Assembly (NCBI RefSeq): GCF_022846255.1 | Contig: NZ_AP025682.1 | Source: Escherichia coli | GTDB lineage: Bacteria > Pseudomonadota > Gammaproteobacteria > Enterobacterales > Enterobacteriaceae | Length of the DNA: 64,000 bases | Reading direction: 5' to 3' (one strand) | Part shown: one piece after another, positions 3,104 through 64,000 of the stretch | Layout: each line of letters begins with the position of its first letter | Position numbering within the stretch: position 1 is the first letter of the stretch | Translations under genes and position numbers: made by a program | Notes under the pieces: generated by a model | Told to the model about the DNA's origin: nothing | The model's database searches: none | The model's input: only the letters and a program-made list of their open reading frames with translations

Positions 3104-4595
<1,492 letters not shown>

Positions 4596-5704: not shown

Positions 5705-5941
5705 TTAACGCAGCGCCCACCACTCGCGCAGGCAGGCTTTGCCTTCCGGGCAGCTTTTACAATTGCCAGAGAGGCAGCCGTCAGGTTCTTCCTGAATCCG
5801 CACGGCTTTGCCCATGCTTTCCAGCTGTTGCAGCATGGCGTTAATCATTGGCTGCGGGGTGTTCAATGTCTGGCTTATCTGGGCCGCTTCCATCCGGCCC
5901 CGTAACGCCAGCAAATCACGCACCTGAATAAGTGAAGCCAT
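5705..5941 (-). CDS. feoC: ferrous iron transport protein FeoC
   Basis: 78-aa product from ATG (MASLIQ) at 5939-5941; ORF-track start at 5950 is a TTG extension; Cys-rich C-terminus; start overlaps feoB stop. Confidence 0.85.
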
Positions 5942-8262
5942 TAATGGCAATCACCGGTGGTGCTGGCTGCGCAGCAACTGCTTACCGACTTGCGCGTTGC
6001 CAGCAGTTCGATATCCACCCGGCTACGCGCGCGACGCAGCAAACCGATAACCACGATGTTAAACAGGATAACCGCCAGAATGCACACCAGGCTGTAAGTT
6101 GGATGCTGGCTGTAGCTGGCGACCTGATAGAACAATGTTGCCAGTGAGTAAGCAATATTCAGCCCCCACAGGATGGAGAAGCCCATCCAGCCACGGCTTG
6201 ATTCACGCGCGATAGCCCCCATCACCGAGATGCACGGTACGTACAGCAGGACGAAAATCAGGTAGCTGTATGCGGCAGCTGCGCTACCGAATTTCTGATC
6301 CATCACGCCCATCGCCCCGGTACCCATTTCGCCGTCGCCTTTGCTGGCTTCAATGGGGTTCATCAGTACGCTAAGGCTGAAGGTGTCTTTCAGGCTCTGC
6401 CAGGTTTCATCTACCGCACTGAACAGCTCTTCACCGAGGTTAAATTCCGCCGGATTGAACTCTTCGTCCTGAATATTTTCTGCGGTGTAGAGGGTGTTGA
6501 GCGTACCCACCACCACTTCTTTCGCCATGGCACCTGTAAACAGGCCAACCGTTGCCTGCCAGTTATCTTCATGTACGCCAATCGGCTTGAAGACCGGGGT
6601 GATCACCCGGCTGACGGAAGCCAGCGCCGAGTCGTTGATGTTATCGACGATTTTTCCGCTCAGCGAGAAGCTGTTGAAGGCGCTCAGGAAAATGCTGACA
6701 ATGATAATCACTTTACCAGCACGCAGAACGAAGCCTTTCAGACGCTGCCAGGTCTGGATAACCAGGCTTTTAACGTGTGGTACATGGTAGACCGGCAGCT
6801 CCATGACAAACGGCGTCGCTTCACCGCGCATGATGGTGTACTTGAGCATCAGGCCCGTCAGCACCGCCATTACGATACCCAGCATATACAGCGAGAAGAC
6901 CGCCAGCGCACCGTTCTGCCCGAAGAAGGCAGCCGCGAATACTGCGAAGATAGCCAGACGCGCGCCGCAGGACATAAACGGTGCCATCATGATGGTCATC
7001 AGACGTTCACGCGGTGCATCAAGCGTACGTGCGCCCATTACCGACGGTACGTTACAACCGAAACCAACGATCAGCGGTACAAAGGATTTCCCCGGCAAGC
7101 CCAGCGCCTGCATCAGGCGGTCCATCACAAACGCCGCACGCGCCATATAGCCGGAGTCCTCAAGGAAGGAGAGGAACAGGTACATCATGCCGATCTGCGG
7201 CACCAGTGGCAGCACGGTGTTAATACCGCCACCCAGGCCCTGGGCGAGGAAGATAGTCAGCCAGTCCGGGAAGTGGAGCGTGTAGCCAATCCACTGAATA
7301 CCATGCACAAACAGCGCCACGGAACCGACATCAAACAGCGGCTGTAACGCCCCGCCGATGTTGATAGCCAGCAGGAACATCAGGTACATCACAAAGAGGA
7401 AAATCGGCAGACCGAGGAAACGGTTGAGCACGATTTTATCTACCGCAGTGGTGAAACGGCTGGGTTCTGCCGTCAGGGTGTTGCTTACCACATCACAGAT
7501 GGCAGCAATGCACTGGTAACGCGCATCGGCAATGTGCAGCGCCGGATCGTCCATCTCATTACGCAGACGGGCGAGGGCGGCATCCAGATGCTGCGACGCT
7601 TCACCGGCGTAGGCGCGGCTGTAGATATCGCCTTCCAGCATTTGCAGGCCCAGCCAGCGACGTTGTTTCAGCGGGATGTCGGAAGGCATCACTTTTGCCA
7701 GTGAATCTGCTTCGTTGAGTAGCGGCTGTGCGTAATGCACCAGTTCCACATTCTCGTTAGCTTTATAGCGATCAATCGCCAGCTTGAGCGCTTCAATACC
7801 GCGACCACGGGTTGAAACCAGCGGGATCACCGGGCAGCCAAGACGCGCCGACAGAGCATCAATTTCAATACGAATATTTTGCTTCTCGGCAATGTCGAGC
7901 ATGTTCAGTGCCACGATGCAGGGAATGCCGAGTTCCAACAGTTGCAGCGTCAGGTACAGGTTACGCTCAAGGTTAGACGCATCCACCACGTTAATCAGCA
8001 GGTCTGCGTCGCCACTCAAAATGTAGTGACAGGCGATTTGCTCATCGAGCGAGGTCTGCGATGAGATGGTGGTCAGAGAATAGGTGCCGGGCAGGTCCAC
8101 CAGCGTGACCTGATGATCGGTGGTGGAGAATTGCCCTTCTTTACGTTCGACGGTAACGCCAGCCCAGTTACCTACACGCTGACGTGAGCCAGTGAGCTGG
8201 TTAAATAACGTTGTCTTGCCAGAATTTGGATTACCAATTAAGCCAATGGTTAATTTTTTCAT
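5941..8262 (-). CDS. feoB: ferrous iron transporter FeoB (GTPase plus permease)
   Basis: 773-aa product from [18 protein letters not shown] (G1 GTPase motif) at 8262; ORF-track start extended by 4 codons. Confidence 0.93.
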
Positions 8263-12065: not shown

Positions 12066-14134
<2,069 letters not shown>

Positions 14135-14520: not shown

Positions 14521-14838
14521 TTAAAGCAGCTTCTCGGACAATAGTTTCAATGCCTTTCTTTGTTCTTCTGTTAAATCATCCTGTTCATTTTTAGGATAAA
14601 TCAACGCCAGATAAATTCGGCCATTGCGTGTTACGTTGTAATAAATTATCCGAATGCCACCCCGTTTCCCCATTCCAGAACGGTTCCAGCGAATTTTTCT
14701 AAAACTGCCTGTGCCTGCGATAATGTCACCGGCAGTGGGATCTTGAATGAGTAGTTCCTGAAAAGCCCGGAACTCATCATCAGGTAGCAATAACTGGCGG
14801 CGTTTGCTAAATCCTTGTAGTTCAATAAAGGTGAACAT
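14521..14838 (-). CDS. putative type II toxin, RelE/ParE superfamily (HigB-like, toxin-first arrangement)
   Basis: 105-aa ORF, ATG at 14838 with AGGA 7 nt upstream; motif GKRGGIRIIYY...IYLALIYPKNEQDDLT typical of RelE-like mRNA interferases; paired with the downstream HTH ORF. Confidence 0.65.
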   Translation of the reverse strand: MFTFIELQGFSKRRQLLLPDDEFRAFQELLIQDPTAGDIIAGTGSFRKIRWNRSGMGKRGGIRIIYYNVTRNGRIYLALIYPKNEQDDLTEEQRKALKLLSEKLL

Positions 14839-18740: not shown

Positions 18741-19619
18741 TTAATGAACTTGCGGATCTGCCGGAGACGCGTTGTTGCGGATTTCAGCAATATCCATCGC
18801 ATTGAACAGATAGTGGTTACCGCAGTAATCACAATGCATGTCAATTTCGCCATCTTCCGCCAGGATGCTATCGACTTCTTCATCCGGCAGCGTTTTTAGC
18901 GCGTCGGCGCAACGTTCACGCGAGCAGGTGCATTTGAACTCCACATCCTGCGGATCGTAAACCGTCACCTCTTCTTCGTGATACAAACGCCACAACACTT
19001 CGTTTGCCGGTAAGGTCAGCAGTTCTTCGGTTTTGATGGTTTCGGTTAGCGTCGCCAGGTGGTCAAAGTCGTCCTGCTGGGCATTTTGCGCAGGCATTAC
19101 CTGCAACAACATACCGCCTGCAGCCGGTTTGCCGTCTACGTCGCCGGTGCGAATAAAAAGGCGCGTCGGCAGCTGTTCAGAACGCATAAAGTAATCTTCT
19201 AGGCAGGCCGCCAGAGTATCACCTTCCAGACCCACCACGCCCTGATAGCGTTCACCTTCGCTCGGGGTGATGGTGATCACCACGTAACCATTGCCGACCA
19301 GCGTTTTCAGGTCGGCATTTTCTGGAATTTCGCCCTGCACGCGCGCCACACCGCGCATCTGCTGTTTGTTGTTACCGTTAATAACCGCCAGATTCATCGG
19401 ACCGTCGCCTTGCAGCTGTACGGTGATATCACCATCAAACTTCAGCGTAGCGGTTAACAGGCTGGTCGCAACCAGCAGTTCTGCCAGCACGTTTTTAACG
19501 GGCTGCGGATAATCGTGGTTCTCAAGGATCTGTTGCAGGGTTTCCGAAACGGTTACCAGTTCGCCGCGAACGGCAAAGTTTTCAAACAGATAGCGATGTA
19601 ATTGGTCATGTTGCGGCAT
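18741..19619 (-). CDS. hslO: redox-regulated chaperone Hsp33
   Basis: 292 aa from second ATG (MPQHDQL) at 19619, which has better spacing to the GAGAG RBS; ORF-track start at 19625 is 2 codons longer; C-terminal CxC...CxxC zinc centre. Confidence 0.9.
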
Positions 19620-26640: not shown

Positions 26641-27420
26641 ATGGCATTTAAGAACTGGCAAATTGGTTTGCATTTACAACAGCAAGAAGCGGTAGCGGTT
26701 GCTATCGTGCGGAGCGCAAAAGAATGCTTATTGCACCGCTGGTGGCGGTTGCCACTGGAGAACGACATTATCAAAGATGGGCGGATTGTTGATGTGCAGC
26801 GGCTGGCTAACACGTTGTTACCGTGGAGTCGTGAACTGCCGCAGCGTCATCACATTATGTTGGCGTTTCCCGCCAGTCGCACATTACAGCGGTCATTTCC
26901 ACGCCCGTCGATGTCCCTCGGTGAGCGGGAGCAAATGGCCTGGCTGTCCGGGACGATGGCCCGTGAACTGGATATGGATCCGGACTCCCTGCGCTTCGAT
27001 TACAGCGAAGACTCACTCAGTCCCGCCTATAACGTGACTGCCGCGCAAAGCAAAGAGCTGGCAACGCTGCTTACTCTGGCAGAAAGGTTGCGTGTTCATG
27101 TTAGCGCGATCACTCCGGATGCCAGTGCATTACAGCGATTCCTGCCTTTTTTACCTTCTCATCAGCAATGTCTGGCCTGGCGTGATAACGAACAGTGGCT
27201 GTGGGCGACGCGCTATAGCTGGGGGCGCAAACTGGCGGTGGGGATGACTAGCGCGAAGGAGCTGGCGGCAGCGTTATCTGTTGATCCCGAAAGCGTCGCG
27301 CTATGTGGCGAAGGCGGATTTGACCCCTGGGAGGCGGTTTCTGTTCGTCAGCCGCCGCTACCGCCACCAGGTGGAGACTTTGCCATCGCGCTGGGGCTGG
27401 CGCTTGGGAAGGTGTACTGA
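26641..27420 (+). CDS. hofM: PilM-like type IV pilus/DNA-utilisation assembly protein HofM
   Basis: 259 aa from ATG (MAFKNWQIGLHLQ) at 26641; first gene of hofMNOPQ. Confidence 0.85.
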   Translation: MAFKNWQIGLHLQQQEAVAVAIVRSAKECLLHRWWRLPLENDIIKDGRIVDVQRLANTLLPWSRELPQRHHIMLAFPASRTLQRSFPRPSMSLGEREQMAWLSGTMARELDMDPDSLRFDYSEDSLSPAYNVTAAQSKELATLLTLAERLRVHVSAITPDASALQRFLPFLPSHQQCLAWRDNEQWLWATRYSWGRKLAVGMTSAKELAAALSVDPESVALCGEGGFDPWEAVSVRQPPLPPPGGDFAIALGLALGKVY

Positions 27421-27959
27421 TGAACCCGCCAATTAATTTTTTGCCCTGGCGACAGCAACGCCGGACTGCTTTTCTTCGTTTCTGGTTGCTGATGTTCGTT
27501 GCGCCTCTGCTGCTGGCCGTCGGGATAACGCTAATACTGCGTCTGACAAGCAATGCCGAAGCACGCGTAAACGCCGTTTTGCTTCAGGCGGAACAACAAC
27601 TCGCCCGCAGCTTACAGATAACGAAACCACGTTTGCTGGAACGCCAGCAGTTACGCGAACAGCGTTTGCAACGGCAGCGCCAACGACAATTTACCCGCGA
27701 CTGGCAATCTGCGCTGGAAGCACTGGCGGCGCTTTTACCCGAACATGCCTGGCTGACAACGATAAGCTGGCAGCAGGGAACGCTGGAGATCAAGGGGCTG
27801 ACAACAAGCATTGCCGCGTTAAACGCGCTGGAAACGTCACTCCGCCAGGATGCTTCTTTTCATCTCAATCAGCGGGGGGCCACGCAGCAGGATGCGCAGG
27901 GACGCTGGCAATTTGAGTATCAGTTAACAAGGAAGGTTAGCGATGAACATGTTCTTTGA
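27420..27959 (+). CDS. hofN: PilN-like protein HofN
   Basis: 179-aa ORF with N-terminal TM segment; start overlaps hofM stop. Confidence 0.85.
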   Translation: MNPPINFLPWRQQRRTAFLRFWLLMFVAPLLLAVGITLILRLTSNAEARVNAVLLQAEQQLARSLQITKPRLLERQQLREQRLQRQRQRQFTRDWQSALEALAALLPEHAWLTTISWQQGTLEIKGLTTSIAALNALETSLRQDASFHLNQRGATQQDAQGRWQFEYQLTRKVSDEHVL

Positions 27960-28383
27960 CTGGTGGTTCGCCACATCACTCCGCCTCCGCCAGTTTTGCT
28001 GGGCAGTCTGGTTGCTGGTGTTAGTTACGCTCATTTTTCTGTCATTGACACACCATGAAGAGAGCGATGCATTAATTCGACTACGGGCAAATCATCACCA
28101 GCAGTGGGCTGCACTGTATCGCCTGGTAGACACCACTTCCTTCAGCGAAGAAAAAACGCTGCCCTTTTCGCCACTGGATTTTCAGTTATCCGGCGCGCAA
28201 CTGGTTTACTGGCATCCATCCGCGCAGGGAGGTGAGTTGGCGTTGAAAACGCTGTGGGAAGCAGTGCCGTCGGCATTTACACGGCTGGCAGAGCGCAACG
28301 TCAGCGTGAGCCGTTTTTTGTTAAGCGTGGAAGGTGATGACCTTTTGTTCACGCTACAACTGGAGACGCCGCATGAGGGTTAA
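27943..28383 (+). CDS. hofO: PilO-like protein HofO
   Basis: 146-aa ORF with N-terminal TM segment; overlaps hofN end. Confidence 0.82.
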   Translation: MNMFFDWWFATSLRLRQFCWAVWLLVLVTLIFLSLTHHEESDALIRLRANHHQQWAALYRLVDTTSFSEEKTLPFSPLDFQLSGAQLVYWHPSAQGGELALKTLWEAVPSAFTRLAERNVSVSRFLLSVEGDDLLFTLQLETPHEG

Positions 28384-28777
28384 ACGCTGGTTGTTGGCAG
28401 GCATTGCATTGTGCCTTTTAACCGGTATGCGTGACCCTTTTAAACCGCCGGAAGATCTATGCCGGATTAGCGAACTTAGCCAGTGGCGCTATCAGGGGAT
28501 GGTAGGGAGAGGCGAGCGCATCATCGGTGTAATAAAAGATGGGCAAAAAAAATGGCGACGGGTGCAGCAAAACGATGTGCTGGAAAACGGCTGGACGATC
28601 TTACAGCTGACGCCAGACGCACTAACGCTGGGAACCGGGACAAACTGCGAACCGCCACACTGGTTGTGGCAACGGCAAGGAGATACAAATGAAGCAATGG
28701 ATAGCCGCACTACTGTTGATGCTTATACCCGGCGTACAGGCGGCAAAGCCGCAAAAAGTGACGCTGATGGTGGATGA
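28373..28777 (+). CDS. hofP: PilP-like lipoprotein HofP
   Basis: 134 aa from ATG (MRVKRWLLAGIALCLLTGM) at 28373; lipoprotein-like signal; ORF-track start extended by 13 codons. Confidence 0.8.
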   Translation: MRVKRWLLAGIALCLLTGMRDPFKPPEDLCRISELSQWRYQGMVGRGERIIGVIKDGQKKWRRVQQNDVLENGWTILQLTPDALTLGTGTNCEPPHWLWQRQGDTNEAMDSRTTVDAYTRRTGGKAAKSDADGG

Positions 28778-33478: not shown

Positions 33479-34315
33479 ATGAAGAAAAATCGCGCTTTTT
33501 TGAAGTGGGCAGGGGGCAAGTATCCCCTGCTTGATGATATTAAACGGCATTTGCCCAAGGGCGAATGTCTGGTTGAGCCTTTTGTAGGTGCCGGGTCGGT
33601 GTTTCTCAACACCGACTTTTCTCGTTATATCCTTGCCGATATCAATAGCGACCTGATCAGTCTCTATAACATTGTGAAGATGCGTACTGATGAGTACGTA
33701 CAGGCCGCACGCGAGCTGTTTGTTCCCGAAACAAATTGCGCCGAGGTTTACTATCAGTTCCGCGAAGAGTTCAACAAAAGCCAGGATCCGTTCCGTCGGG
33801 CGGTACTGTTTTTATATTTGAACCGCTACGGTTACAACGGCCTGTGTCGTTACAATCTGCGCGGTGAGTTTAACGTGCCGTTTGGCCGCTACAAAAAACC
33901 CTATTTCCCGGAAGCAGAGTTGTATCACTTTGCTGAAAAAGCGCAGAATGCTTTTTTCTTTTGTGAATCTTATGCCGCCAGTATGGCACGAGCGGATCAA
34001 TCCTCGGTGGTGTATTGCGATCCACCTTACGCACCGCTTTCTGCAACCGCTAACTTTACGGCATACCATACGGACAGTTTTAGCCTGGAACAGCAGGCTC
34101 ATCTGGCGGAGATCGCCGAAGATCTGGTTAACAGGCAGATCCCGGTGTTGATCTCCAACCATGATACGGCGTTAACGCGCGAGTGGTATCAGCGCGCAAA
34201 ATTGCATGTCGTCAAAGTTCGACGCAGTATAAGCAGCAACGGCGGCACACGTAAAAAGGTGGACGAACTGCTGGCTCTGTACAAACCAGGAGTCGTTTCA
34301 CCCGCGAAAAAATAG
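33479..34315 (+). CDS. dam: DNA adenine methyltransferase (GATC)
   Basis: 278-aa ORF with DPPY catalytic motif (VYCDPPYAP). Confidence 0.96.
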
Positions 34316-38285: not shown

Positions 38286-39449
38286 ATGTTTGTAGAAGCA
38301 TTGAAACGCCAGAACCCGGCGCTGATTTCCGCCGCACTAAGTTTGTGGCAGCAGGGCAAGATCGCCCCGGACAGTTGGGTGATCGACGTGGATCAAGTTC
38401 TGGAAAACGGCAAGCGGCTGATTGAGACGGCGCGGCTTTACGGCATTGAACTGTATCTGATGACCAAACAATTCGGTCGTAATCCGTGGCTGGCAGAAAA
38501 ACTGTTGGCTCTGGGCTACAGCGGCATTGTGGCGGTGGATTACAAAGAGGCGCGAGTCATGCGCCGCGCCTGTTTGCCGGTAGCGCATCAGGGGCATTTG
38601 GTACAAATCCCTTGTCATCAGGTGGTTGACGCCGTTGCACAGGGAACCGACGTCATCACCGTGTTTACTCTCGACAAAGCGCGGGAAGTTTCTGCGGCAG
38701 CGGTGGAGGCCGGACGTGTGCAGTCTGTGCTGCTCAAAGTTTATAGCGACGATGATTTTCTTTATCCGGGGCAGGAGAGCGGTTTTGTACAGCATTCGCT
38801 GCACGAGGTGGTTGCTGAAATCCAGAATCTGCCGGGGCTACATTTGGCGGGACTTACCCATTTCCCTTGCCTGCTTTGGGATGAGGCTGCCGGGAAAGTT
38901 TTGCCGACACCGAATCTTCACACGCTGGTACAAGCACGGGATCAACTGGCGAAATCTGGTATTGCGATTGAGCAACTGAACGCACCTTCAGCGACCAGCT
39001 GCACGTCGCTGCCATTGCTGGCGGAATACGGTGTGACTCATACCGAACCCGGTCATGCGCTGACGGGCACTATTCCGGCAAATCAACAGGGCGATCAGCC
39101 TGAACGTATCGCGATGCTCTGGTTAAGTGAAATCTCCCATCATTTCCGTGGCGACAGCTACTGCTACGGCGGCGGTTACTACCGTCGTGGTCACGCGCAA
39201 CATGCGCTGGTGTTTACGCCAGAGAATCAAAGCGTGACTGAAACATATCTCAACGCCGTGGATGACAGCAGTATCGACTACACCCTGCCGCTGGCAGGCG
39301 AGCATCCGGTAAGTAGTGCAGTGGTGCTCTGTTTTCGCACGCAGATTTTTATCACCCGTAGCGATGTGGTGCTGGTGTCCGGTATTCACCATGGCGAACC
39401 AGAAATAGTTGGTCGTTATGACAGCCTCGGCAACCCTCTGGAGGCGTAA
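38286..39449 (+). CDS. yhfX: alanine-racemase-fold PLP-dependent protein YhfX
   Basis: 387-aa ORF recognised as YhfX. Confidence 0.85.
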   Translation: MFVEALKRQNPALISAALSLWQQGKIAPDSWVIDVDQVLENGKRLIETARLYGIELYLMTKQFGRNPWLAEKLLALGYSGIVAVDYKEARVMRRACLPVAHQGHLVQIPCHQVVDAVAQGTDVITVFTLDKAREVSAAAVEAGRVQSVLLKVYSDDDFLYPGQESGFVQHSLHEVVAEIQNLPGLHLAGLTHFPCLLWDEAAGKVLPTPNLHTLVQARDQLAKSGIAIEQLNAPSATSCTSLPLLAEYGVTHTEPGHALTGTIPANQQGDQPERIAMLWLSEISHHFRGDSYCYGGGYYRRGHAQHALVFTPENQSVTETYLNAVDDSSIDYTLPLAGEHPVSSAVVLCFRTQIFITRSDVVLVSGIHHGEPEIVGRYDSLGNPLEA

Positions 39450-40676
39450 ATGGCGCGATTTGTGGTGTTAGTGATTGATAGCTTTGGCGTAGGGGCAATG
39501 AAAGATGTCACGTTGGTGCGTCCGCAGGATGCCGGGGCGAATACCTGTGGTCACATCCTGAGCCAGTTGCCGCATTTGCAGCTACCAACGCTGGAGACGC
39601 TGGGGCTAATCAACGCATTGGGTTATGCGCCTGGCGATATGCAGCCGTCAGACTCCGCAACCTGGGGCGTGGCAGAGCTGCAACATGAAGGTGGCGATAC
39701 CTTTATGGGGCATCAGGAGATTTTAGGTACGCGCCCATTACCGCCGCTGCGGATGCCCTTTCATGATGTGATTGACCGTGTTGAGCAGGCATTAGTTTCC
39801 GCTGGTTGGCAGGTGGAGCGCCGTGGCGATGATCTGCAATTTCTGTGGGTCAATCAGGCGGTTGCGATTGGCGATAATCTCGAGGCGGATTTAGGGCAGG
39901 TCTATAACATCACCGCCAATCTCTCTGTGATCTCTTTTGACGACGCAATCAAAATTGGTCGTATCGTGCGTGAGCAGGTACAGGTCGGTCGGGTCATTAC
40001 ATTTGGCGGCCTGTTAACCGACAGTCAACGCATTCTCGATGCCGCAGAAAGCAAAGAAGGGCGCTTTATTGGCATCAATGCGCCGCGTTCAGGCGCTTAT
40101 GACAACGGCTTCCAGGTCGTGCATATGGGCTACGGCGTCGATGAGAAAGTGCAGGTGCCGCAAAAACTGTATGAAGCGGGCGTGCCAACCGTGCTGGTGG
40201 GTAAGGTGGCGGATATCGTCAGCAATCCTTATGGCGTGAGCTGGCAAAACCTGGTGGATAGCCAGCGGATTATGGATATCACTCTCGACGAATTTAACAC
40301 CCATCCGACGGCGTTTATTTGCACCAATATCCAGGAAACCGACCTCGCTGGTCATGCAGAAGACGTCGCACGTTATGCCGAACGTTTGCAGGTCGTTGAC
40401 CGTAACCTTGCCCGGCTTGTTGAGGTGATGCAGCCAGATGATTGCCTGCTCGTGATGGCGGATCACGGTAACGATCCGACCATTGGTCACAGCCACCATA
40501 CCCGCGAAGTAGTGCCAGTGCTGGTTTATCAGCAAGGGCTGGTCGCTACGCAGCTCGGTGTGCGCACCACGCTTTCTGATGTGGGGGCCACCGTGTGTGA
40601 ATTTTTCCGCGCGCCACCGCCACAAAATGGTCGCTCTTTTCTTTCCTCCCTCCGGTTTGCAGGAGACACCCTATGA
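39450..40676 (+). CDS. yhfW: phosphopentomutase-like metalloenzyme YhfW
   Basis: 408-aa ORF recognised as YhfW; start abuts yhfX stop. Confidence 0.85.
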
Positions 40677-43242: not shown

Positions 43243-44328
43243 ATGAAGACGTTTCCTCTGCAAAGCCTGACGCTTATTGAGGCGCAGCAAAAGCAGTTTG
43301 CGCTGGTGGACACGATTTGCCGTCATTTTCCTGGCAGCGAGTTTCTTACCTGCGGTGATTTGGGCTTAACGCCGGGGCTAAATCAACCGCGCATTACCCA
43401 GCGTGTGGAACAGGTGCTGGCTGATGCATTTCACGCACAGGCCGCGGCGCTGGTACAGGGCGCGGGTACTGGCGCGATCCGTGCGGCACTGGCGGCTTTG
43501 CTCAAATCGGGGCAGCGTCTTCTGGTGCATGACGCGCCTGTTTACCCGACGACACGGGTTATTATTGAGCAGATGGGGCTAACGCTCATTACGGCTGATT
43601 TCAATGATCTGTCGGCACTGAAGCAGGTTGTTGACGAGCAACTACCGGATGCGGCGCTGGTGCAGCATACGCGCCAGCAGCCACAGGACGGCTACATTCT
43701 GGCAGATGTGCTGGCAACGTTGCGCTCGGCTGGCGTTCCTGCATTAACCGATGACAACTATGCGGTGATGAAAGTGGCGCGAATTGGCTGCGAATGCGGG
43801 GCAAATGTCTCGACTTTTTCCTGCTTCAAGCTGTTTGGGCCGGAGGGTGTTGGCGCGGTGGTAGGCGATGCCGATGTTATTAGTCGGATTCGCTCCACGC
43901 TCTATTCCGGCGGCAGCCAGATTCAGGGCGCTCAGGCGCTGGAAGTCTTGCGTGGGCTGGTGTTTGCGCCAGTGATGCACGCGGTGCAGGCGGGGGTATC
44001 TGAACGGTTGCTGGCCTTGCTCAACGGTGGCGCAGTGGCGGAAGTGAAAAGCGCCGTCATTGCCAATGCGCAGTCGAAGGTGTTGATTGTGGAGTTTCAT
44101 CAGCCGATTGCCGCCAGGGTGCTGGAAGAGGCGCAGAAACTCGGCGCGTTGCCTTACCCGGTGGGCGCGGAGTCGAAATATGAAATCCCGCCGCTCTTCT
44201 ATCGACTTTCCGGAACGTTTCGTCAGGCGAATCCACAATCAGAACATTGCACGATTCGCATTAATCCGAATCGCAGCGGTGAAGAGACGGTGTTGCGGAT
44301 TTTGCGTGAGATTATTGCCAGTATTTAA
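43243..44328 (+). CDS. yhfS: PLP-dependent aminotransferase-like protein YhfS
   Basis: 361-aa ORF recognised as YhfS. Confidence 0.85.
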   Translation: MKTFPLQSLTLIEAQQKQFALVDTICRHFPGSEFLTCGDLGLTPGLNQPRITQRVEQVLADAFHAQAAALVQGAGTGAIRAALAALLKSGQRLLVHDAPVYPTTRVIIEQMGLTLITADFNDLSALKQVVDEQLPDAALVQHTRQQPQDGYILADVLATLRSAGVPALTDDNYAVMKVARIGCECGANVSTFSCFKLFGPEGVGAVVGDADVISRIRSTLYSGGSQIQGAQALEVLRGLVFAPVMHAVQAGVSERLLALLNGGAVAEVKSAVIANAQSKVLIVEFHQPIAARVLEEAQKLGALPYPVGAESKYEIPPLFYRLSGTFRQANPQSEHCTIRINPNRSGEETVLRILREIIASI

Positions 44329-47178: not shown

Positions 47179-47505
47179 TTAACCGCGCAGCTGTACCACG
47201 CCGTCTTTCACTCGCGCGTCGTAATGCTTGACGGAAAACTGTTCGTCTTCCATGCACAAGCCGTCGCTTAAGCGAAAACGCTGTTTTTTCAGCGGGCTGG
47301 CGACCCACAGCTCGCCCTGGTGTTCCGCAATCAGCCCGCGTGACAGCACGCTGGACTCGAAGAACGGATCGATGTTGCTGATCGCAAACACCTGGTCGCT
47401 GTGATACGGGCGGAAAATTGCTACCTGCTCGTCACCTAACAGCGCGCAGACGCCGGTTTCAGGCAGGATGTCATCGATTTTGCAGATGTCTTTCCACTGG
47501 CTCAT
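47179..47505 (-). CDS. nirD: nitrite reductase (NADH) small subunit
   Basis: 108-aa ORF; start overlaps nirB stop (ATGA). Confidence 0.94.
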   Translation of the reverse strand: MSQWKDICKIDDILPETGVCALLGDEQVAIFRPYHSDQVFAISNIDPFFESSVLSRGLIAEHQGELWVASPLKKQRFRLSDGLCMEDEQFSVKHYDARVKDGVVQLRG

Positions 47506-51749: not shown

Positions 51750-52331
<582 letters not shown>

Positions 52332-52435: not shown

Positions 52436-52603
52436 GTGAAGAAACTCACCGATAAGCAAAAGTCCCGTCTCTGGGAGCTTCAGCGTAATCGTAATTTCCA
52501 GGCCAGTCGCCGTCTTGAAGGCGTCGAGATGCCTTTAGTCACTCTTACTGCCGCAGAGGCTTTAGCGCGCCTTGAAGCGCTGAGGAGGCACTATGAGCGA
52601 TAA
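52436..52603 (+). CDS. yhfG: small Fic-associated protein YhfG (putative antitoxin/regulator of Fic)
   Basis: Manual translation from GTG at 52436: (M)[54 protein letters not shown]; 3' end overlaps fic start by 11 nt; below ORF-track cutoff. Confidence 0.75.
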
Positions 52604-55161: not shown

Positions 55162-57252
55162 TTACGCCTTCGAATCCCGCAACTTGCGACTCAGCCAAAT
55201 CCCGTGATGCGGTCGCTGACGCCATGCCATCGACGAAATGGTGTGCATGGTGTTCAGATGACCAATAACCCGCTGTAAATGCTGCTCCAGCGTACCTGCC
55301 GCGCCTTCGTGCGGCTGCATCTCCGGCGCATCCATGATATTGGCATCGCCAGAACTACCCGGTTCGTCATACTCCAGTCGCTGCTGACAACGCTGAATGG
55401 CGATTTCACAAGACTGTAAATATTCTTGCGCCAGTTCAGGTGGCAATGCCCGGTGTTCCCGTGCCAGCGTGGTCATGGCATTGATATGTTCAACTATAAA
55501 CTGACTGTGCGTTACCCACAGTTTCATATCTGCCAGATAATGGCTGTTGAATGCCGGTTCCTGCATCGCCTGATTCAATGAGTTATACAGAGTGTTATGC
55601 GCCTGATTCACCCGCATTCGCTGCCAGGCCAGTGGCGTTGGTTGCGGGTCCTCGCTCAGAATCAAGCGAATCGCGTCCTGATAGGCTTCTAAAGCGTCAT
55701 GGGCGTTCTTACGCAATAACCCGCTCTGCCACTGCGGCCACAGCCAGACAGTACCGCCGAAAGCAATTAAACAACCAATAATGGTATCGATAAGACGTGG
55801 AAGGATGTACTGCTCACCGTTCAGCCACAACAGTTGCAGGGTATACACTGCGGTAATGGTAAAACCGACCGTCGCCCAGCCGTAGTTTTTGCGCAATATC
55901 AGGTAGCTGGCGAGGGTGGTAATCAGCATCAAGGTCAGGGTGTAACCTTCGGGAATTTTAAAGTGCAGCGCCACGCCCGCAATGATTAACCCGACCACGG
56001 TTCCCACGGAGCGATTCACAATCCTCAGACGGGTTGCGCCATAGCCATTTTGCGTCACCAGCAATACCGTCATCAGGATCCAGTACGACTTCGGCAGATG
56101 CAGTGCGGTGCCCATCAGGCTGGCAACGCTTAACATCACACTGAGTCGTCCGGCATTGCGTAGCGCCGGAGACTTTAGTGACAGATAACTTTTCAGCGCC
56201 GGAAGTAACGGCATTCGCCGCTGTTTATCGGCCAGTAAGTCACGGGCATAGAGCGGTTTTTGGGTGCGCAGCACGCGGGCAATGCGGCTGAAATGCCAGT
56301 AGCAGAATTGCCCAACCGGATTATCCGGGTGTTGGCGGGCGATTTTTTCCAGTGCGCCAATTTGCTTTTCCATCGTAAAACGCGTTGGCAGGCGATGGTA
56401 AAGAATGTCATCAGCCAGCACGCGCAGGCGAGCGGCGACGGTTTGCGCATTCCAGCGGATAACTTCTTCCGCATGGCTACGCTCGACCAGCTTTTGCACC
56501 TCTTCCGGCTGATGCAAACTGACCGAAATATGTTCCTGCAAATCCAGCGCCTCCTGGAAAATACGCAGCATCCGCTTGTAATCGGTATTATTTTGCGCGG
56601 AAAGCATATGCATTTGCTGATAGCACTGGGTAATTAAATCGACCGCTTTTTGCTGGCGCACCAGCAGCGGCGGCAGCGCTTTTTCAGGGTCGGTGTGCTG
56701 GGTAAGCAGGCTGTATTTGGCTTCACAGTAATCTGCCAGTTCACGGTACAGCAGACTTAGTGACTCGCGTAGCGGTTGTTCGCGCCAGATCCAGAACCAA
56801 AACCAGTTAAACAATCCGTACCACAAAGTGCCCAGCGCATAGATGAGCAACGGTTCCCAGACCGGCATGTATCCCGCCAGACTGAGGGTAAAAATGGCGG
56901 CGAGCAGCGATGCGGGAAGCAATTTTGCGTGCAATGGCCCCAGCTCAGCAGTGACGCCAAGTACCAGCGTTAATCCGGTCAGCAAAAAGGGCAGAGGAAC
57001 ATCTTTTGCCAGTAGTAGCTGTGTCAGCAAGCTACAGGTGGCAAACAGCGACGCACCAATGATTAAGCGTTTGAAAAAACGTTTATGAGGCGTATCAAGG
57101 CCCGCAATATTGCAACAGGCAGGAACGAGGGAGAAGAGCAGGCCGAATCGTAATTCGCCAAGCATTAACCCAACGGCCACGGGCAAACATAGCACCAGCG
57201 TTTGTCGAAGTGCATAGTTGATATCGGGGTGATAAATCAGTCTGCGCCACAT
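55162..57252 (-). CDS. yhfK: inner membrane protein YhfK (function unknown)
   Basis: 696 aa from ATG (MWRRLIYHPD) at 57252; large polytopic membrane protein. Confidence 0.85.
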   Translation of the reverse strand: MWRRLIYHPDINYALRQTLVLCLPVAVGLMLGELRFGLLFSLVPACCNIAGLDTPHKRFFKRLIIGASLFATCSLLTQLLLAKDVPLPFLLTGLTLVLGVTAELGPLHAKLLPASLLAAIFTLSLAGYMPVWEPLLIYALGTLWYGLFNWFWFWIWREQPLRESLSLLYRELADYCEAKYSLLTQHTDPEKALPPLLVRQQKAVDLITQCYQQMHMLSAQNNTDYKRMLRIFQEALDLQEHISVSLHQPEEVQKLVERSHAEEVIRWNAQTVAARLRVLADDILYHRLPTRFTMEKQIGALEKIARQHPDNPVGQFCYWHFSRIARVLRTQKPLYARDLLADKQRRMPLLPALKSYLSLKSPALRNAGRLSVMLSVASLMGTALHLPKSYWILMTVLLVTQNGYGATRLRIVNRSVGTVVGLIIAGVALHFKIPEGYTLTLMLITTLASYLILRKNYGWATVGFTITAVYTLQLLWLNGEQYILPRLIDTIIGCLIAFGGTVWLWPQWQSGLLRKNAHDALEAYQDAIRLILSEDPQPTPLAWQRMRVNQAHNTLYNSLNQAMQEPAFNSHYLADMKLWVTHSQFIVEHINAMTTLAREHRALPPELAQEYLQSCEIAIQRCQQRLEYDEPGSSGDANIMDAPEMQPHEGAAGTLEQHLQRVIGHLNTMHTISSMAWRQRPHHGIWLSRKLRDSKA

Positions 57253-59618: not shown

Positions 59619-59837
59619 TTATTCGCGAAACTGACTGCGCGGCATGATATTGACCGTTTCGTGCAGCTCCGACCATACCAGCACCGCTTCTCCGCACTGT
59701 AGCTGGCGTTTGACGTCGGCGACTTTCTGTTCAAGTGTACGCTCATGTTCACCATAATCGGTGCCTTCACGTAACACAAAGCTTTCAATTAAATTTTCCA
59801 GCGTTTCGGGGGAGAGGTCTTGCCACGGAATCAACAT
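59619..59837 (-). CDS. yheU: UPF0270-type small protein YheU
   Basis: 72-aa ORF; start overlaps yheT stop. Confidence 0.85.
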
Positions 59838-60853
59838 GATTTCGCCTCCAGATACGTTGTTAACCAGTCAGGAATGCGTGACTCCAGCCACATTTGCGGA
59901 TGAAGTAATGTACCGCCAATAAAGCCAACATGACCGCCATGTTCAGTCAGCTGATACTCCACCTGCGGGGGGAGACTTTCCGGTTTCGGGATCACCTGAT
60001 GATCCATAAACGGATCGTCTTTGGCGTGAATAATCAGTGTCGGTTTGGCTATCCGATTGAGCATCGGCATGGCGCTACACTGACGATAATAGTCAATAGC
60101 GTCAGCGTAGCCGTGAATTCTGGCGGTGATGAGATCGTCAAATTCACGGATGCGACGTACCGATTTTAACTGCGCGAGATTAATCGGCAGTGTGCCGGGG
60201 TAGGCTGCCAGCTTGCGCGCGGCATTGGCTTTTAACAGGTTCAGCAAGTAACGCTGATAAACGCGGGAAAAGCCCTTTTCCATATGGTAACTACAGGCCT
60301 CCAGCATAAACGGCGCAGAGACAATCACTGCCGCATCAATCGGGAGATCATTGCCTTCTTTTGCCAGCAAACAGGCCAGCATATTACCGCCGAGCGAATA
60401 GCCGACGGCAGCCGTTGGCGCATGACCAAACTCGCGTTGCAGCCAGCGTAAAAACCAACTGGCGTCTTCGGTTTCGCCCGAATGGTAAATGCGGTGCATA
60501 CGGTTTGGTTCACCGCTGCATCCGCGAAAATGCATCACCACGCCCAGCCAGCCGCGCTTTTGCGCCGCCTCAACCAGACCGTGAGCGTAAGGGCTATTGA
60601 GACTGCCTTCCAGCCCGTGAAATACCACTAAACGCGGTTTATGCCGCGCCTGTGCAGGATCTTCACTCCACGCGAGATCGACAAAATCGCCGTCGGGCAA
60701 CTCCAGCCGCTGCCAGTACGGGGTGAATTTCACCTTGCGACGGAACAGACGCGGCAGCATGGTTTGTAGATGACAATTGCTAAAGCCGCGCATGGGGGTG
60801 AATTCAGCACTGCTGCTGAATTCATTGGCATCGGTCGTTGTTATCTGCGCCAT
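59831..60853 (-). CDS. yheT: alpha/beta hydrolase YheT
   Basis: 340-aa ORF with GxSxG nucleophile (GYSLGG). Confidence 0.88.
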
Positions 60854-62766
60854 CAGTTGCTTTGGCCTTCCAGCAGCATCTGCTCAAGCTGCTCCTGGGC
60901 TTCCAGCCATGCCATTTCGCACTCTTCCAGGCCGGATTTGGCGCTGGCTTGCTGTTGCAGGCAGGCGGTCAACTCCGCTTTACGGCTTTGATCGTACAGT
61001 TCGCTGTCGCCGAGTTTCTCTTCCGCCTGCGCCAGTTGCGCGTTCAGCTTCTCCATCTCTTTTTCCAGACGGGCAATCTCTTTACGCAGTGGCTGGGTTT
61101 GCGCACGCAGCTCCGCTTCCCGACGCTTCTGATCTTTACGTGCCTGGGCGCTGTTCGCGTTCTCTTTTGGCGCTTCGTCGGTCTGGTTTTCCTGCTTTTG
61201 TACGTCGCTCAACCACTGTTGATAATCTTCCAGATCGCCGTCGAACGGTTCGACTTTACGATCGTGAACCAGGTAGAGATCGTCAGTGGTGGAACGCAGC
61301 AAATGACGGTCGTGCGAGACGACAACCAGCGCGCCTTCGAACTCGATTAATGCTTCGGTGAGTGCCTGACGCATGTCGAGGTCAAGGTGGTTGGTCGGTT
61401 CGTCGAGCAGCAGCAGATTCGGACGCTGCCAGACAATTAATGCCAGCACCAGGCGGGCTTTTTCCCCACCGGAGAAGCGGCGCGTTTCTTCGGTTACTTT
61501 ATCGCCCTGGAAACCAAAGCCGCCGAGGTAGTCACGCAGTTTTTGTTCCAGCTCCTGCGGCGCTAAACGTGCCAGATGTTGAATAGGCGATTCGTCGGCG
61601 CGCAGGTATTCCAGTTGATGCTGGGCGAAGTAGCCGAGCTTGATCCCTTTCGCCAGACCAATTTCACCGCTGACTGGCGCAAGTTCCCCGGCTAACAGTT
61701 TGATTAATGTCGATTTACCCGCGCCGTTGCGGCCTAGCAGACCAATGCGCGAGCCGGGGACCAGATTCAGTTTAATCGAGTCGAGAATAATGCGATCGCC
61801 ATAGCCTGCGCTGACTTTTTCCATCTTCAGTAACGGATTTGGCAGGCTTTCCGGCGCGCGGAAGCTAAAGCGGAACGGGTTGTCGACGTGCGCGGGGGCA
61901 ATCAGCTCCATACGCTCAAGCATCTTAATGCGGCTCTGGGCCTGCTTCGCTTTGGTGGCTTTGGCACGGAAACGGTCGATATAACTTTGCAGATGCGCCA
62001 CGCGTTCCTGCTGGCTTTCATACATCGCTTGTTGCTGCGCCAGACGGGTGGCGCGCTGCACTTCAAACGAACTGTAGTTGCCGGTGTACTCGAACATGCT
62101 TTGTTGTTCGATATGAATAATTTTATCAACGATCGGATCGAGGAAGTCGCGGTCGTGAGAGATCAGGATCAGCGTGCCCTGATAGCTCTTCAGCCATTTT
62201 TCCAGCCAGATAACGGCATCGAGATCGAGGTGGTTAGTCGGTTCGTCGAGCAGCAGCAAGTCTGAACGGCAAATCAGCGCCTGGGCAAGGTTAAGACGCA
62301 TACGCCAGCCACCGGAGAAATCACTCACCGGGCGCTCCAGTTGTTCATTGCTGAAACCGAGGCCGTGCAGCAGGCTGGCGGCGCGGGAGCGAATGCTCCA
62401 TGCGTCAATAGCATCCAGCTTGCCATGAATGGTCGCAATGGCGTGCCCGTCGTTACGTTCGTTGGCGTCGTGTAGCTGCGCTTCCAGTTGACGATATTCA
62501 CGGTCGCCGTCAATGACATATTCCAGCGCCGCTTGCGGTAGCGCTGGTGTTTCCTGATTCACCCACGCCAGTTGCCAGCTTCCTGGAAAGGTGTAGCTGC
62601 CGCCGTCGGCACTGATTTCATTTTTCAGCAATGCCAGCAGGGTAGATTTACCACAGCCGTTTTTACCCACCAGGCCGACTTTCTGCCCGGGGTTGATGGT
62701 GGCGGTGGCATTATCCAGCAGGACGCGCACGCCGCGACGAATTTGTAACGAGGAGAAAACAATCAT
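60853..62766 (-). CDS. yheS: ABC-F family ATPase YheS
   Basis: 637-aa ORF with two Walker A motifs (GKNGCGKST, GRNGAGKST), two LSGG signatures and a C-terminal coiled-coil. Confidence 0.92.
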   Translation of the reverse strand: MIVFSSLQIRRGVRVLLDNATATINPGQKVGLVGKNGCGKSTLLALLKNEISADGGSYTFPGSWQLAWVNQETPALPQAALEYVIDGDREYRQLEAQLHDANERNDGHAIATIHGKLDAIDAWSIRSRAASLLHGLGFSNEQLERPVSDFSGGWRMRLNLAQALICRSDLLLLDEPTNHLDLDAVIWLEKWLKSYQGTLILISHDRDFLDPIVDKIIHIEQQSMFEYTGNYSSFEVQRATRLAQQQAMYESQQERVAHLQSYIDRFRAKATKAKQAQSRIKMLERMELIAPAHVDNPFRFSFRAPESLPNPLLKMEKVSAGYGDRIILDSIKLNLVPGSRIGLLGRNGAGKSTLIKLLAGELAPVSGEIGLAKGIKLGYFAQHQLEYLRADESPIQHLARLAPQELEQKLRDYLGGFGFQGDKVTEETRRFSGGEKARLVLALIVWQRPNLLLLDEPTNHLDLDMRQALTEALIEFEGALVVVSHDRHLLRSTTDDLYLVHDRKVEPFDGDLEDYQQWLSDVQKQENQTDEAPKENANSAQARKDQKRREAELRAQTQPLRKEIARLEKEMEKLNAQLAQAEEKLGDSELYDQSRKAELTACLQQQASAKSGLEECEMAWLEAQEQLEQMLLEGQSN

Positions 62767-62893: not shown

Positions 62894-63448
62894 ATGATGT
62901 CTCAGCCAGCGAAAGTTTTGCTGCTGTATGCCCATCCGGAATCTCAGGACTCGGTGGCAAACCGGGTGCTGCTTAAACCGGCCACGCAGCTCAGCAATGT
63001 TACCGTGCACGACCTTTACGCGCACTATCCCGATTTTTTTATTGATATCCCCCGTGAGCAGGCATTACTGCGCGAGCACGAGGTGATTGTCTTTCAGCAT
63101 CCTCTTTATACCTATAGCTGCCCGGCGCTACTGAAAGAGTGGCTGGACCGGGTATTAAGCCGTGGTTTTGCCAGCGGGCCGGGAGGAAACCAACTGGCGG
63201 GAAAGTACTGGCGTAGCGTGATTACCACCGGCGAGCCGGAAAGTGCTTACCGTTATGACGCCTTGAATCGCTACCCCATGAGCGATGTTCTGCGCCCCTT
63301 TGAACTGGCGGCGGGCATGTGCCGGATGCATTGGTTGAGTCCCATCATTATTTACTGGGCGAGACGGCAAAGCGCACAGGAGCTGGCGAGTCACGCCAGA
63401 GCCTACGGTGACTGGCTGGCAAATCCGCTGTCTCCAGGAGGCCGCTGA
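62894..63448 (+). CDS. kefG: KefB ancillary protein KefG (flavodoxin-like)
   Basis: 184-aa ORF; ATGA overlap with kefB start. Confidence 0.92.
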
Positions 63449-64000
63449 TGGAAGGTTCCGATTTTTTACTCGCAGGAGTGCTGTTTCTCTTCGCGGCGGT
63501 GGCTGCGGTGCCGCTGGCATCGCGGCTGGGGATTGGCGCTGTGTTGGGATATTTGCTGGCAGGGATTGCAATTGGCCCGTGGGGGCTGGGGTTTATTAGC
63601 GACGTCGATGAGATCCTCCACTTTTCGGAACTCGGCGTGGTGTTCCTGATGTTTATCATCGGCCTTGAGTTGAATCCCTCCAAGCTTTGGCAACTGCGGC
63701 GTTCGATTTTTGGCGTAGGCGCGGCACAGGTGCTGTTAAGCGCGGCGTTGCTGGCGGGATTATTGATGCTGACCCATTTCTCATGGCAGGCGGCGGTGGT
63801 CGGTGGCATTGGCCTTGCGATGTCTTCAACTGCAATGGCGTTGCAATTGATGCGTGATAAAGGGATGAATCGCAGCGAATCCGGCCAGTTAGGTTTCTCG
63901 GTACTGCTGTTTCAGGATCTGGCGGTGATCCCGGCACTGGCGTTAGTGCCGTTGTTGGCGGGTTCGGCAGACGAACATTTCGACTGGATGAAGATCGGCA
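63448..64000 (+). CDS. kefB: glutathione-regulated K+ efflux antiporter KefB, 5' portion (continues beyond window)
   Basis: ATG at 63448; hydrophobic N-terminal region of a CPA2 antiporter; open to window end. Confidence 0.9.

Follow-up and report, generated by a model that had tools for sequence, protein, structure and literature searches.

The window analyzed here, a 64,000-nucleotide stretch of an Escherichia coli chromosome, runs from malQ to kefB and contains genes of the ompB, nir, feo and dam operons. Annotation was carried over from a collinear E. coli reference and the junctions were then read on the coding strand; all transferred coding sequences lying wholly inside the window are intact open reading frames, and kefB is cut by the window end. 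Among same-strand neighbors, 14 of 46 pairs overlap (Table 1). Eleven junctions have spacings of -8 to 0, and four (hofN/hofO, hofO/hofP, hofP/hofQ and yhfG/fic) are overlaps of 11 to 89 nt. No terminator fits between overlapping genes, there being no room for one, and the spacing mix of the window agrees with the E. coli counts in the literature. These overlaps are ordinary E. coli operon architecture, of a textbook kind that was already known.

An initial annotation of this DNA had listed nine overlaps as evidence for coupled translation of functionally linked proteins, and all nine exist on intact open reading frames. The feoB/feoC TAATG (on the minus strand, 5943..5939) and the ompR/envZ ATGA lie where they had been placed, the 8-nt overlaps of rpe/gph and gph/trpS were read as described, and ATGA was found at both yhfW/php and nirB/nirD. 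The ATGA label for kefG/kefB must be corrected to TGATG, with a single shared nucleotide; if that label was also meant for the yhe junctions, the overlaps themselves stand but the motif does not, as yheS/yheT reads TGATG and yheT/yheU reads ATGTTGA (the minus-strand order is yheS, yheT, yheU). Five further overlaps (hofM/hofN, hofN/hofO, hofO/hofP, hofP/hofQ and yhfG/fic) and the abutting yhfX/yhfW pair had been missed. In the reference strain yhfX/yhfW reads TAATG (-1) against a spacing of 0 in the window, and a 1-nt indel toggles the two.

Table 1. Overlapping and abutting gene junctions of the window (positions count from its first nucleotide).
Junction	Motif or overlap	Position	Strand	Remark
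feoB stop/feoC start	TAATG, 1 nt shared (5941)	5939..5943	-	feoB 5941-8262, feoC 5705-5941
ompR stop/envZ start	ATGA, -4	12782..12785	+	
hofM stop/hofN start	TGATG, -1	27418..27422	+	Not in initial annotation
hofN/hofO	17-nt overlap	27943..27959	+	Not in initial annotation
hofO/hofP	11-nt overlap	28373..28383	+	Not in initial annotation
hofP/hofQ	89-nt overlap	28689..28777	+	Not in initial annotation
rpe/gph	8-nt overlap, ATGAATAA	35003..35010	+	
gph/trpS	8-nt overlap, ATGACTAA	35754..35761	+	
yhfX stop/yhfW start	TAAATG, abutting, spacing 0	39447..39452	+	Not in initial annotation
yhfW/php	ATGA, -4	40673..40676	+	
nirB stop/nirD start	ATGA, -4	47502..47505	-	
yhfG/fic	11-nt overlap	52593..52603	+	Not in initial annotation
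yheT stop/yheU start	ATGTTGA, 7-nt overlap	59831..59837	-	
yheS stop/yheT start	TGATG, -1 (1 nt)	60851..60855	-	
kefG stop/kefB start	TGATG, -1 (1 nt)	63446..63450	+	

Within spacings of -20 to +20, 7 of 22 pairs sit exactly at -4 or -1 (binomial against uniform spacing, p = 6e-5 to 1.6e-4), and -4, -1 and -8 are the spacings enriched across all prokaryotes. The bare motif is frequent: among the stop triplets of the whole window, 11.4% have an ATG at -4 or -1, and TAATG also occurs at 4 of 46 gene stops that have no partner gene. Because the motif is this common by chance, an overlap is established by a real gene starting there and not by the motif.

In most downstream genes, no other start codon lies between an in-frame stop and the annotated start. 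In feoC, envZ, gph, trpS, php, nirD, yheT and kefB, the next in-frame ATG is 48 to 117 nt downstream or does not occur in the 120 nt scanned, and the later ATGs of these eight genes mostly have poor Shine-Dalgarno (SD) sequences. The FeoC length of 78 aa and its N-terminus (MAS[LM]I) are conserved across genera, the N-terminus being invariant, and the ATG of envZ occurs without exception in 66 species. These observations argue against the view that some of the overlaps are annotation artefacts, with the true start downstream (and no overlap) or elsewhere, and we consider this view highly improbable; it draws on an in-frame ATG 36 nt upstream in hofP that has a better SD (-8.7 vs -6.4), on YheU gene calls that differ among genomes (72, 78 or 82 residues), and on a Yersinia trpS called with a 12-residue N-terminal extension. 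For hofP and yheU, alternative starts are plausible. The hofQ start leads into a hydrophobic N-terminus resembling a signal peptide.

The SD sites embedded in the upstream genes of overlapping pairs have a mean pairing energy of -7.95 kcal/mol, compared with -3.14 kcal/mol for random intragenic 20-mers (Mann-Whitney p = 8.6e-9), and are also stronger than those of separated pairs (mean -5.57 kcal/mol, p = 0.0096). Eleven of 15 junctions fall within the strongest 10% of the intragenic background, and the scores of feoC, gph, trpS and yheT lie inside the random range (15th-28th percentile). Embedded SD sites of this kind fit the published pattern. Five are very strong, namely those of fic (-12.1 kcal/mol; GAGGAGG, the strongest in the window), kefB (-10.3), hofN (-10.2), yheU (-9.7) and nirD (-9.3), and these could drive independent initiation. 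It is accordingly conceivable, though we lean against it, that the downstream genes mainly initiate at their own embedded SD and that the overlap merely saves space. The bioBF pair behaves in this way (PMC6728339), and predicted RNA structure occludes the starts of overlapping pairs no more than those of separated pairs, the two groups showing no difference in MFE z-scores or in accessibility of positions -15 to +5 in 120-nt contexts, a result that speaks neither for nor against an RNA-unfolding model. Against independent initiation, the SD is weak at ompR/envZ, feoB/feoC, gph/trpS and yheS/yheT, and four of the five native ATGA pairs examined in E. coli lost downstream translation, despite their SD sites, when a stop was placed prematurely in the upstream gene (PMC6728339).

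Conservation differs widely from junction to junction. The ompR/envZ ATGA is present in 66 of 66 Enterobacteriaceae species while synonymous sites on either side of it vary, so that 41 different junction strings occur. All four other genera compared retain the rpe/gph overlap, at -8 or -4, and nirB/nirD is at -4 in the two other Enterobacterales compared, with +39 and +1 in distant relatives. The kefG/kefB pair has a spacing of -1 in Salmonella and of +1 in one genome of the Pectobacteriaceae, and yheT/yheU is at -4, 0 or +1 in other genera. The gph/trpS overlap is kept in one of four other genera, spacings ranging from -8 to +9 (+2 in Serratia, +9 in Pragia, and +1 in Yersinia, where direct reading and gene calls give TAA-A-ATG); the -8 pattern fits a gph frame extended beyond an earlier stop and ending at a TAA within codons 2-3 of trpS. 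In three other enterobacterial genomes (Salmonella, Cronobacter and a Pectobacteriaceae genome) yheS and yheT are never adjacent, lying 0.7-3.4 kb apart with other genes called between them.

The feoB/feoC overlap is a derived state. Alignment and allele counts identify it as an 11-bp deletion in a lineage of E. coli that changed the spacing from +10 to -1 and took out an ancestral, SD-bearing TAAGGA spacer. Of 80 other Enterobacteriaceae species, 79 have an SD-bearing spacer of 8-13 nt between feoB and feoC and one has the overlap; the +10 spacer is also found in E. albertii. Across 5425 E. coli genomes, sensitive blastn searches consistently assigned the overlap allele to 4594 (carriers include K-12 and O157:H7) and the spacer allele to 831 (including strain 536), or ~85% and ~15% of complete genomes; megablast with 140-151-nt queries undercounts the spacer allele (42 and 90 genomes). 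By this comparison of sequences, the feoB/feoC overlap is a recent state, polymorphic within E. coli, and not a conserved design. The flanks diverge by ~9%, a hint that two old haplotypes may be involved. We also considered whether feoC had lost its SD through the deletion, and rejected this: the SD energy of the overlap allele (-6.0) is close to that of the Escherichia spacer alleles (-5.7). The two energies are similar because of a further, synonymous change in the overlap allele (GGC to GGT), which makes a new match, GGUGAU, to the 16S rRNA tail.

No description of this two-allele polymorphism was found in the searchable literature. We tentatively speculate that the two natural alleles may differ in the FeoC:FeoB synthesis ratio, or in how far FeoC synthesis depends on translation of feoB. 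If so, they would provide a ready-made natural experiment, informative about translational coupling and about the contested role and dosage of FeoC, and could be used on a small scale to test what share coupling has in FeoC expression. In a K-12 proteome supplement, FeoB was widely quantified and FeoC had values in just 3 of the 30 columns of a single table, which is too sparse to test coupling; computed from these three columns, FeoC amounts to ~1-2% of FeoB by mass, or ~0.12-0.17 mol/mol. KefB was never detected in the same supplement.

Overlaps arise and decay by small mutations, as feoB/feoC and gph/trpS illustrate, and an overlap alone therefore proves neither selection for coupling nor a functional partnership. 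Taken further, the overlaps could be neutral outcomes of genome compaction and of mutations such as small deletions or the loss of a stop codon, with coupling incidental or absent. An ATGA, once formed, is hard to undo, each of its bases lying within a start or stop codon. The deletion-derived feoB/feoC allele coexists with the spacer allele and is absent from nearly all other species, yhfX/yhfW is toggled by one nucleotide, the gph/trpS spacing drifts, and the yheS/yheT adjacency is lineage-specific. A purely neutral origin is nonetheless unlikely, given the strong enrichment of embedded SD sites, the experimental support for ompR-envZ coupling, the coupling of most tested E. coli ATGA pairs, and the 4.5-fold enrichment of subunits of protein complexes among short spacings in E. 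coli. We counted against coupling the random-range SD scores of feoC, gph, trpS and yheT, the very strong SD sites of fic, kefB, hofN, yheU and nirD, the lack of any structural difference from separated pairs, the length of the four longest overlaps, and the lack of conservation of feoB/feoC, gph/trpS and yheS/yheT.

The suggestion that overlapping genes encode functionally linked partners holds for some pairs only. We take FeoB/FeoC, OmpR/EnvZ, NirB/NirD, KefG/KefB, YhfG/Fic and HofM-Q to be products that act together. For gph/trpS, with its variable spacing, and for yheS/yheT a functional partnership is not evident, and the separation of yheS from yheT in other genomes argues, at the level of gene order, against a functional link. 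As a calibration, an overlap in this window is no reliable sign of conservation or functional linkage, ompR/envZ being invariant and feoB/feoC polymorphic.

The anatomy of the junctions, the clustering at -4 and -1, the embedded SD sites and the conservation patterns are direct observations. We judge it probable that these overlaps are normal operon architecture with termination-reinitiation coupling as their most likely mode of working, the coupling itself being drawn from the literature. A ribosome finishing the upstream frame would terminate 0-8 nt from the next start codon, and the same ribosome, or its 30S subunit, would re-initiate at the downstream start, mostly aided by an SD lying within the final codons of the upstream gene; the output of the downstream gene would thus follow that of the upstream gene at a fixed, usually lower ratio.

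The claim of coupled translation made in the initial annotation is partly supported: -4 and -1 stop/start overlaps are the classic translational-coupling architecture, according to reviews and experiments, and the embedded SD sites fit it; experimental support was found for ompR-envZ alone. In the literature searched, no coupling experiment was found for the other eight listed pairs, and no direct coupling evidence for any window pair besides ompR-envZ, feoB-feoC, nirB-nirD and kefG-kefB included. envZ is regarded as translationally coupled, and, in the Salmonella ompB work of Liljestrom, Laamanen and Palva (1988, J Mol Biol 201:663), as cited in PMC12548453, a change of spacing from -4 to +3 lowered coupling ~30-fold. 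OmpR and EnvZ are present at ~3500 and ~100 molecules per cell (PMC543474), amounts so unequal that coupling sets a ratio and not an equal output. Overlaps longer than ~8 nt are reported to couple poorly, which concerns hofN/hofO, hofO/hofP, hofP/hofQ and yhfG/fic.

As a discovery, these junctions are minor: the literature has described stop/start overlaps along with translational coupling since the 1980s and has catalogued them genome-wide, and the window is typical of E. coli. Comparative genomics has shown that gene overlaps evolve through stop-codon loss or small deletions; feoB/feoC (11-bp deletion), gph/trpS and yhfX/yhfW (1-nt indel) resemble such cases, with the difference that feoB/feoC is still polymorphic within one species. 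The classic coupled pairs of E. coli, trpE-trpD, trpB-trpA, galT-galK and rplK-rplA, are adjacent cistrons whose stop and start overlap or abut and in which downstream translation depends on upstream translation. These pairs are backed by direct genetic evidence, whereas most pairs of the window are not. NirB/NirD, KefG/KefB, OmpR/EnvZ, YhfG/Fic and the Hof proteins presumably interact, and in this too they are like the products of known coupled systems. Coupling of rplK-rplA is also reported in PMC12548453. Salmonella ompB offers the nearest parallel, with a gene pair and ATGA identical to those of the window, although the experiment was performed in Salmonella and not on the window sequence. 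In the termination-reinitiation systems of Huber 2019 (PMC6728339), where bioBF was the one uncoupled pair among five native ATGA pairs of E. coli, Huber 2023 (PMC10666635) and Brown and Wade 2025 (PMC12548453), the tested sets do not include the window pairs, some of which have longer overlaps (-11, -17 and -89); these systems and the window share the same ATGA, TGATG and TAATG motifs, a secondary -8 class, co-directional operon genes and an SD embedded in the upstream gene.

The overlaps in this window are best explained as ordinary operon junctions. Gene boundaries were carried over from the collinear reference NZ_LR898874.1 (malQ to kefB); all 62 CDSs have the expected start and stop codons and intact ORFs, except kefB, which extends beyond the window end. 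Reading the junctions on the coding strand, we found all nine overlaps listed in the initial annotation, although its label "ATGA" was wrong for kefG/kefB and yheS/yheT (TGATG, one base in common) and for yheT/yheU (a 7-nt overlap). Overlaps occur in 14/46 same-strand adjacent pairs, and several junctions had been absent from the list (see table). At yhfX/yhfW, a 1-nt indel that leaves both reading frames unaffected separates the window (spacing 0) from the reference strain MSB1_4I (TAATG, spacing -1, negative values being shared nucleotides).

Coordinates and anatomy of junctions and other features in the window
Feature	Position	Description
feoB/feoC	5943..5939, minus strand	TAATG, base 5941 common to both
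ompR/envZ	12782-12785	ATGA
rpe/gph		8-nt overlap, ATGAATAA
gph/trpS		8-nt overlap, ATGACTAA
yhfW/php		ATGA
nirB/nirD		ATGA
kefG/kefB		TGATG
yheS/yheT	60853-62766 (yheS); 59831-60853 (yheT)	TGATG; overlapping in E. coli
yheT/yheU		ATGTTGA
hofM/N		TGATG; not listed initially
hofN/O		17-nt overlap; not listed initially
hofO/P		11-nt overlap; not listed initially
hofP/Q		89-nt overlap; not listed initially
yhfG/fic		11-nt overlap; not listed initially
yhfX/yhfW	39447-39452	abutting, TAAATG; not listed initially
relE-like	14521-14523	partnerless TAATG stop codon
hslO	18741-18743	partnerless TAATG stop codon
ppiA	52329-52331	partnerless TAATG stop codon
yhfK	55162-55164	partnerless TAATG stop codon
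Last ompR codons	12765-12772	CCGGACGG
gntX	3104-3787	intact ORF
High-divergence stretches	38286-39449; 43243-44328; 33479-34315	window vs reference

The first 20 kb of the window are ~98% identical to essentially all complete E. coli genomes. Identity to the reference is patchy (yhfX 92.9%, yhfS 93.3%, yhfW 94.3% and dam 94.1%, against 98-100% in neighboring genes), which suggests recombination patches. The gntX gene has 227 codons here, whereas the reference annotation lists it as a pseudogene interrupted by a stop codon. In some assemblies, gene calls of 358-376 residues (P0241, P0242, P0246 and P0269) join a Dam methylase domain to an Rpe 99-100% identical to that of the window; such calls could have arisen by fusion over the 17 nt that separate dam from rpe.

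Taken alone, a bare stop/start motif is no proof of anything. Across the window, 11.4% of stop triplets have an ATG at -4 or -1, and TAATG is found at 4/46 gene stops without a partner gene, illustrating a chance background of ~9-11%; the overlaps are real because genes with homology support begin there. Spacings of exactly -4 or -1 account for 7/22 pairs spaced -20 to +20 nt (binomial p 6e-5 to 1.6e-4 versus uniform spacing), and a neutral origin without function probably applies to some pairs. The spacing mix is typical of E. coli, with 13 pairs at -8 to +10 and 24 at >+20, compared with 820 and 1,630 in the whole genome (Huber et al. 2023, PMC10666635).

Shine-Dalgarno (SD) strength was scored as the most stable pairing between the 16S rRNA tail and the 20 nt that precede the downstream start. 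The mean for 15 overlapping or abutting pairs was -7.95 kcal/mol, compared with -3.14 kcal/mol for random intragenic 20-mers (Mann-Whitney p = 8.6e-9) and -5.57 kcal/mol for separated pairs (p = 0.0096), reproducing the genome-wide pattern of Huber et al. 2019 (PMC6728339). Sites are very strong at fic, kefB, hofN, yheU and nirD and weak at feoC, gph, trpS and yheT; independent initiation from strong embedded sites probably operates at some pairs. Predicted RNA structure near the starts was no different in overlapping pairs than in separated ones, and an RNA-unfolding model is therefore unsupported here.

Mis-called start codons probably explain some pairs too. For feoC, envZ, gph, trpS, php, nirD, yheT, kefB, fic and yhfW, no ATG intervenes between a nearby upstream in-frame stop and the annotated one; where a further in-frame ATG follows within 120 nt, its distance is 48-117 nt. 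FeoC homologs across genera have 78 residues and an invariant MAS[LM]I N-terminus, and the envZ ATG does not vary across 66 species. The hofP and yheU starts are uncertain, the former because of an in-frame ATG at 28337, 36 nt upstream of the start at 28373 (SD score -8.7 versus -6.4; the hofO overlap would grow to 47 nt), the latter because its called length differs between genomes. Yersinia kristensenii trpS (locus L087, 5371-5410) is called with a 12-residue N-terminal extension relative to E. coli, MSKPTEISAVSDKQ..., starting 1 nt past the gph stop.

The ompR/envZ ATGA is invariant in 66/66 loci while adjoining synonymous sites vary (41 distinct junction strings). Every base of the motif lies in a start or stop codon, so its invariance may partly reflect entrenchment, not selection for coupling. 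Within the last ompR codons, the string CCGGACGG is likewise invariant in 66 species, including the third positions of Pro (CCG) and Asp (GAC), and all four bases are found at the third position of the adjoining Val codon; this pattern may point to constraint on the envZ initiation region within ompR. Changing the Salmonella spacing from -4 to +3 is cited as having lowered coupling ~30-fold (Liljestrom 1988, as cited in PMC12548453), and current work treats envZ as translationally coupled. Cells contain ~3,500 OmpR and ~100 EnvZ molecules at a constant ratio (PMC543474); coupling sets this ratio, not equal amounts.

The feoB/feoC junction, flagged in the initial annotation, is the labile one. 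Among 80 species-level Enterobacteriaceae loci fetched via FeoC alignment, 79 have an 8-13 nt gap with an SD (typically CAC-TAA-GGAG...ATG; +10 in E. albertii and E. whittamii), and only one, labeled Escherichia sp. MOD1-EC7003, has the TAATG of the window, whose lineage has, in the alignment, cleanly lost 11 bp. Sensitive reciprocal searches with both alleles (140 and 151 nt) against 5,426 complete E. coli genomes placed the overlap in 4,594, including K-12, O157:H7 and ATCC 8739, and the +10 spacer, CACTAAGGACACGACAATG (confirmed from annotation and direct reading), in 831 (15.3%), including strain 536; their flanks differ by ~9%. The feoC SD energies are alike (-6.0 overlap, -5.7 spacer). 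In the overlap allele, a synonymous GGC->GGT change yields a GGUGAU match, strengthening pairing from -2.1 to -6.0 (10-nt tail) or from -6.0 to -9.9 (13-nt tail). This may be compensation, although the event is a single one and GGTGA also occurs in four species that keep the spacer. We found no description in the literature of this two-allele junction within E. coli, which offers a natural test of the overlap's contribution and is the one item worth a note. FeoC appears in only 3/30 columns of one K-12 proteome table, and the calculated ~0.12-0.17 mol per mol FeoB is weak evidence because small proteins are hard to detect. An enterobacterial feoABC locus in CACSKA010000004.1 (L077), labeled Chryseobacterium sp. 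18061, has a junction nearly identical to the one in Citrobacter sp. 18056 (L075) from the same project, and this assembly is probably mislabeled or contaminated.

Among the other junctions, rpe/gph overlaps in each of four further genera compared (-4 in Pragia, -8 in the remaining three), and gph/trpS is -8 in one of four (+2 Serratia, +1 Yersinia, +9 Pragia). nirB/nirD is -4 in two other Enterobacterales, and a pair of distant relatives known from metagenomes have +39 and +1; kefG/kefB is -1 in Salmonella and +1 in one Pectobacteriaceae genome; yheT/yheU is -4, 0 or +1 in other genera. yheS and yheT lie 0.7-3.4 kb apart in one Salmonella, one Cronobacter and one Pectobacteriaceae genome (L089, L090 and L091), with called ydhR, LysE-family and NAMPT/PRPP-synthase/NrtR genes between them, and their E. 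coli juxtaposition looks like the product of a deletion.

Junction anatomy, spacing bias and SD enrichment, observed directly like the conservation patterns, favor the coupled translation initially proposed; since neutral origin, independent initiation and mis-called starts each probably hold for some pairs, that reading is partly supported. A ribosome ending the upstream gene would re-initiate at the start codon a few nucleotides away, usually assisted by an embedded SD; the downstream product would then be made in a fixed, generally lower, proportion to the upstream one. We found no published coupling test for window pairs other than ompR-envZ, and for these we infer coupling. Coupling at stop/start overlaps is already known: -4, -1 and -8 are the enriched overlap spacings across all prokaryotes, and coupling efficiency is highest from about -4 to +3. 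In E. coli, subunits of complexes are 4.5-fold enriched at short spacings (Huber et al. 2023, PMC10666635), and four of five native ATGA pairs are strictly coupled, bioBF being uncoupled (Huber et al. 2019, PMC6728339).
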